Shown in pieces: positions 1,175-1,213 of a stretch of DNA of 1,213 nucleotides. The DNA is from Escherichia coli (GTDB lineage: Bacteria > Pseudomonadota > Gammaproteobacteria > Enterobacterales > Enterobacteriaceae): assembly GCF_003334315.1 (NCBI RefSeq), contig NZ_QOWR01000121.1, one strand, 5' to 3'. Within the stretch, counting starts at the first letter, position 1. Each line of letters starts with the position of its first letter. The notes under the pieces were generated by a model, which ran no database searches, had not been told where the DNA came from, and saw nothing but the letters and a program-made list of their open reading frames with translations. The translations under genes were made by a program, and so were the position numbers.

Positions 1175-1213
1175 CTCACTTAGCCGCGTGTCCACTATTG
1201 CTGGGTAAGATCA
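1175..1213 (-). repeat. Left terminal inverted repeat (IRL) of the IS3-like element. The outer boundary at 1213 is firm; the inner boundary is approximate (IS3 IRs are about 39 bp and imperfect).
   Basis: The terminal sequence 5'-TGATCTTACCCAGCAATAGTGGACACGCGGCTAAGTGAG-3' (minus strand, 1213 to 1175) begins with the TG dinucleotide typical of IS3-family ends. The partner IRR is outside the window, so the inverted-repeat relationship cannot be confirmed here. Confidence 0.8.

Follow-up and report, generated by a model that had tools for sequence, protein, structure and literature searches.

The 1,213-nucleotide stretch of DNA analyzed here (the window) is an unremarkable copy of a known element, the insertion sequence IS3 of Escherichia coli and Shigella, and is very probably a collapsed-repeat contig, in other words a repeat edge in the graph of a short-read assembly rather than a locus with context. 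Both of its ends fall at points where IS3 copies diverge from one another, one at the tip of the insertion sequence (IS) and the other at the base before IS3 position 1214. The sequence-only reading had raised the possibility of a standalone repeat contig, and this suggestion is well, if indirectly, supported by the placement of the ends at divergence points, by a simulation of the assembly graph, by breaks that recur at the same base in public assemblies, and by the multicopy state of IS3. From these observations we infer that this particular window arose by such a collapse.

In a nucleotide comparison, IS3 copies from complete E. coli genomes matched the window with 100% identity over all 1,213 bases. 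A match to the window was present in 4,685 of 5,426 such genomes, on chromosomes as well as plasmids, and the number of IS3 places per genome had a median of 3 and a maximum of 18, which are figures for the species as a whole. The identical copies number in the thousands and carry the RefSeq annotation [quoted passage not shown] The window corresponds to positions 1 to 1213 of the 1,258 positions of IS3, in reverse orientation. IS3 is the founding member of the IS3 family. Besides OrfA and OrfB, it produces through a −1 frameshift the fused OrfAB DDE transposase, an enzyme that works on TG...CA inverted repeats and gives rise to 3-bp duplications. This account of transposition and frameshift chemistry follows published work on IS3 and IS911; the open reading frames, protein domains, frameshift motif, left inverted repeat, and duplications around sister copies were verified here.

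Both reading frames lie on the minus strand. The first, orfA (849 to 1148, stop codon included), encodes an InsE-type helix-turn-helix protein of 99 amino acids (aa); it was taken from the list of open reading frames, and the RefSeq coding sequence likewise starts at window position 1148. OrfA carries the Pfam domain HTH_Tnp_1 (PF01527) and is an exact 99-aa match to "Transposase InsE for insertion sequence IS3A." The second, orfB (1 to 852), encodes the DDE/rve transposase domain and is truncated, with 284 of 288 codons translated and no stop codon in the window. OrfB residues 1 to 284 are identical to InsF (288 aa). Against the NCBIfam model NF033516 ("IS3 family transposase"), OrfB scored 339.3 bits (cutoff, 160) over profile positions 90 to 369 of 369, and its Pfam domains are HTH_21, rve (PF00665), rve_3, and rve_2. 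A search of the window against Rfam returned no RNA family at an E value of ≤1. A promoter and terminator scan of the window detected two promoter-like sites within orfB, with no promoter in the left inverted repeat and no terminator in the window.

The two frames overlap at ATGA, with orfB in the −1 frame. An A AAA G slippery motif for −1 programmed frameshifting is located in the orfA/orfB overlap at window positions 882 to 886 on the minus strand (IS3 positions 328 to 332), and the joined orfA-orfB coding sequence is labeled "programmed frameshift" by RefSeq in all eight of the genomic copies discussed below. Sekine et al. reportedly identified A AAA G as the IS3 frameshift site in 1994. 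An inverted-repeat search also found a perfect 10-nt inverted repeat, GACATACTTC / GAAGTATGTC, on the same strand (841 to 876, with arms at 867 to 876 and 841 to 850). It lies downstream of the slippery motif, covers the orfA stop and the orfB start, and is a candidate frameshift-stimulating stem. When the frameshift region was folded as a single sequence and its minimum free energy was compared with those of shuffled sequences, the stability was not significant (z = −1.16). A pseudoknot has been reported for the IS3 frameshift region in the literature.

The right-hand end of the window was examined by comparing eight independent genomic copies, together with 300 nt of flanking sequence, each of which contains the window exactly (L001 to L008). 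All eight are identical through window base 1213 and diverge from the very next base (8/8), and in all eight the same three bases lie outside both IS ends as a 3-bp target-site duplication (TSD; 8/8). Because the copies diverge directly after 1213 and each has a TSD, this base is the true outermost base of IS3. The comparison thus bears out the earlier claim that the left terminal inverted repeat (IRL) reaches its outermost base, the TG terminus, exactly at the last base of the window. The IRL occupies positions 1175 to 1213 on the minus strand, and the terminus can be assigned as IRL since orfA starts 66 nt inward from it. Read on the minus strand, the window end is 5'-TGATC..., and the 39 nt from 1175 to 1213 show 28 of 39 ungapped matches to the right inverted repeat (IRR) of full-length copies, with both termini beginning TGATC.

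The start of the window is not an IS terminus. It begins 45 nt inside the 1,258-nt element, a point that was absent from the sequence-only reading. The same eight copies run on past window base 1 for 45 identical nucleotides (TGATCCTACCCACGTAATATGGACACAGGCCTAAGCGAGGTTCTT, plus strand) before their flanks diverge. Since collapse of the whole IS would give 1,258 nt, the asymmetric 1,213-nt segment needed to be explained. The left boundary (window position 1, not assigned to a strand) is IS3 position 1213, the last base common to IS3 copies before a site at position 1214 that is occupied by A, C, or T. The eight copies described above have A at this site (AAG, Lys285). Ten others (L019 to L022 and L205 to L210) have C (CAG, Gln285), and the full-length copies L009, L010, and L012 have T, which makes a TAG stop and hence a genuine 284-aa OrfB.

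Among 4,253 matched RefSeq E. coli records, perfect 61-nt matches were found to the A form in 3,402, to the C form in 1,710, and to the T form in 1, so that the common partner of A at this position is C. With no more than 851 records lacking a perfect A place, both A and C must be carried by at least 859 complete E. coli replicons. Within a single genome, the commonest site of difference between IS3 copies is thus the base immediately outside the window start. In metagenome contigs, which were dominated by gut samples, the ratio among the matches listed was 71 A versus 56 C. The TAG allele was considered as a general cause of the break at the left end and was dropped, having a single perfect record in complete RefSeq E. 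coli. Judging by their accessions, the entries given for the 284-aa protein are probably from Shigella flexneri.

The closest intact C-type copies (L209 and L210) differ from canonical IS3 at two positions, A200G and A1214C. IS3 position 200 corresponds to window position 1014 (minus strand), where the window carries A; the A200G change, located by haplotype comparison, is synonymous (Gln45 in orfA). Among distinct full-length copies, the haplotypes at positions 200 and 1214 were A-A (18 copies), G-A (15), G-C (18), and G-T (3), and every C- and T-type copy examined had G, or rarely C, at position 200.

How these two polymorphisms would act on an assembly was simulated in a de Bruijn graph whose input was the real A-type copies L001 to L008 and the C-type copies L209 and L210, flanks included. 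The A-type copies alone gave a repeat unitig of 1,258 nt. With A- and C-type copies together and the bubble at position 200 popped, the unitig ran from IS3 position 1 to 1213, which is the window, at k values of 31, 41, 45, 55, 77, and 127. When the bubble was left in place, the strict unitig was 201 to 1213, not 1 to 1213. Position 200 forms a closed, poppable bubble because there is long common sequence on either side of it, and the single nucleotide polymorphism (SNP) at 1214 is a permanent fork for k > 44 because only 44 shared bases remain before the flanks diverge.

The window was most likely produced under the following scheme. Identical IS3 copies would merge into one assembly path, and that path would end wherever the copies cease to match. 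To the right, it would stop at the IRL tip, since each copy has its own flank. To the left, it would stop at 1213 provided that IS3 copies with different bases (A, C, or T) at 1214 occur together in the source genome or sample; for k > 44 the paths from that site would never rejoin, and internal SNPs such as A200G would be popped as bubbles. The scheme would need either a bubble-popping assembler or source copies that all carry A at position 200.

The same break is common in public assemblies. The exact 284-aa truncated OrfB (ending ...SPEQFEN) was found on at least 1,000 contigs in the public collection, and the next most common truncated OrfB among the forms listed was found on 33. The 284-aa form is indexed in 3,302 blocks, and in 2,643 of these the longest contig carrying it is shorter than 2 kb. 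Ten places were shown for this protein, with the longest contigs first and with selection for a stop or a contig end after codon 284. Six of them are contigs from different assemblies (L013 to L018) that end at exactly IS3 position 1213; the remainder are the three T-allele copies (L009, L010, and L012) and one broken copy (L011). Among the six, L015 is a mosaic IS3 whose first ~360 nt contain ~50 differences and whose remainder is identical to the canonical element, and in L018 only IS3 positions 315 to 1213 align. These two contigs indicate that some genomes carry recombinant or hybrid forms of IS3.

Metagenome contigs were scanned with the first 30 nt of the window, and their ends were mapped onto IS3. 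The largest class of starts among the matches listed comprised 20 contigs at IS3 position 1159, exactly 55 nt short of the 1213|1214 junction; 11 of these carry C and 9 carry A, and SPAdes-style NODE names are found on seven. In metaSPAdes, the top k is 55 by default. Another six contigs among the matches listed begin at position 1087, 127 nt before the fork. Both alleles occurred with the same start within one assembly in OBVD01 (L038 with C and L114 with A) and in SKEK01 (L045 with C and L047 with A). In principle, the 1159 class could instead consist of contigs that overlap the true terminus by 100 nt (k = 101, as in some MEGAHIT settings), a reading against which stand the NODE-named contigs and the 1087 class. 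The start classes at 1182/1183, 1180/1181, 1160/1161, and 1132/1133 are consistent with k or k−1 overlaps (77, 79, 99, and 127) with the true terminus, the pattern expected when all copies in a sample carry one allele; they were left uncounted as evidence for the fork at 1214, and the 1183 class, being 31 nt from the fork, is ambiguous. Contigs that start or finish exactly at the IS tip were also present (L104 and L141).

Among the matches listed for the metagenome sample, no contig from the body side of the element ended at 1213. The first 30 nt of the window retrieved no contig of 1,213 nt from metagenome_contigs (among the matches listed), genome_contigs, or viral_contigs. The ends of viral (provirus) contigs fell into scattered classes and were set aside as uninformative, on the assumption that the scatter is due to boundaries cut by prediction. 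In genome_contigs, IS3 copies identical or nearly identical to the E. coli element were seen in species-representative metagenome-assembled genomes labeled Ruminococcaceae, Lachnospiraceae, and Sporosarcina psychrophila (L143, L146, L147, and L148). These contigs start about 99 to 306 nt inside IS3 and run into flanking sequence, and they are probably misbinned Enterobacteriaceae contigs.

Three other origins of the window were weighed. It might be a real IS3 remnant, physically broken at 1213 by the insertion of another mobile element or by a deletion beside one, the contig ending there because the neighbor is itself a repeat. Such a remnant does exist, as in a 5.69-Mb genome (CP050193.1, L011) IS3 stops at 1213 and is followed by IS1B. 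However, this was 1 of 10 places, in a set chosen for a stop or contig end after codon 284, and the copy differs from the window by G29A. The fork created by the SNP is far commoner than the broken remnant, given the at least 859 replicons with both alleles, and a broken remnant in a short-read assembly would also fork at 1213|1214, which makes it a variant of the same artifact. We consider a physical break unlikely as the source of this window. In L011 itself, IS3 is joined to 186 nt of IS1B (3353 to 3538), and the join makes a TGA stop that yields a 284-aa product; this junction is either a real IS1-mediated truncation or an assembly misjoin.

The window might also have been cut from a longer sequence, with boundaries set by a scanning pipeline or by similarity- or repeat-based extraction, in which case its coincidence with the IS terminus would carry no information on the assembly; this origin appears slightly less probable still. 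Extraction of maximal exact repeats from a finished genome with A and C copies should yield the same 1,213-nt segment. Against a slice, 1,213 is not a round window size and the source is itself reported as 1,213 bases; moreover, two specific bases are needed. By our own arithmetic, arbitrary cuts would fall on such a base with a chance of ~1/1258 per end, or roughly 1 in 1.6 million for both, and chance placement of the two boundaries was rejected on the per-end figure. It is hardly credible that the window is a single-copy IS3 at normal coverage whose ends reflect low coverage or read-end effects. Contigs from low-coverage metagenomes can end anywhere, and many one-off start positions were seen, but these observations are not specific to this explanation. 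Random dropout of coverage would not set both ends on IS3 divergence points, nor would it reproduce a break that recurs in thousands of assemblies.

The alleles at 1214 also differ in their surroundings. Over distinct full-length contexts among the loci L001 to L212, a 3-bp TSD flanked 15 of 34 A-type copies, 2 of 20 C-type copies, and 3 of 3 T-type copies (A type versus C type, Fisher P = 0.014, with loci that were not randomly sampled). In complete RefSeq genomes, the corresponding counts were 8/8 for A-type and 0/9 for C-type copies. A- and T-type copies mostly retain TSDs and interrupt single genes, resembling recent simple insertions, and C-type copies tend to lie between pieces of different genes, an arrangement suggestive of older copies whose flanks have undergone deletion or recombination. 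The C type could be a lineage that is older, less active, or prone to adjacent deletions and recombination. The alleles alter the C terminus of the transposase (Lys285, Gln285, or a stop that loses four residues), and the site lies at the inner edge of IRR. Even so, it is doubtful that the three-allele site marks functionally different IS3 lineages.

Partial copies of this end of the element were observed in plasmids. On plasmid p503440_78 (NZ_CP025884.1, L020), positions 71 to 566 consist of 4.0 perfect tandem repeats of the last 124 nt of IS3. The array includes IRR and the C allele, follows a full IS3 copy, and lies upstream of the cssA/cssB genes for CS6 fimbriae. In related ETEC plasmids, the 61-nt tail of IS3 occurs at 7 to 12 places.

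The window carries no information on insertion site or copy number and matters mostly as a caution. If it is a collapsed repeat, as we favor, the truncated orfB that it contains would be an assembly artifact and not a pseudogene. A single SNP located 45 nt from the IS tip leads many assemblies to break at one internal base, and protein databases have been seeded with a 284-aa "partial" IS3 transposase from at least 1,000 contigs. The artifactual 284-aa OrfB is indistinguishable from the real product of the TAG allele, which is truly 284 aa long. Annotation and pseudogene counts that use this protein, and entries named "transposase, partial," therefore mix an artifact with a real product. The sequence-only reading had further held that any inference of copy number or insertion site would need long reads; this is not strictly the case, as short-read methods based on junction reads, ISMapper (10.1101/016345) and ISseeker (PMC5343135), were made for placing IS copies.

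Both the IS3 element and the collapsed-repeat artifact are already known, and what is new is confined to the break that recurs inside the element at IS3 1213|1214 and to its consequence for databases. Compared with IS3 of E. coli K-12 (IS3 family, IS3 group; insE/insF), the window has the same nucleotide sequence, the same OrfA, and the same IRL with its TG terminus. It differs from the complete element in being without the last 45 nt, in which orfB ends (four codons, KNLA, plus a stop codon) and IRR lies, and taken alone it is neither a complete nor a mobile element. In the literature, a collapsed contig of a multicopy IS is taken to stand for the full-length IS (PMC5343135, 10.1101/016345). 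Like the collapsed-IS contigs described with ISseeker (PMC5343135) and ISMapper (10.1101/016345), the window is short, contains IS sequence only, ends at an IS terminus, and belongs to an element that is multicopy in most host genomes. Unlike them, it has an internal fork at a three-allele SNP as one of its ends and is for that reason 45 nt short of the full-length element.
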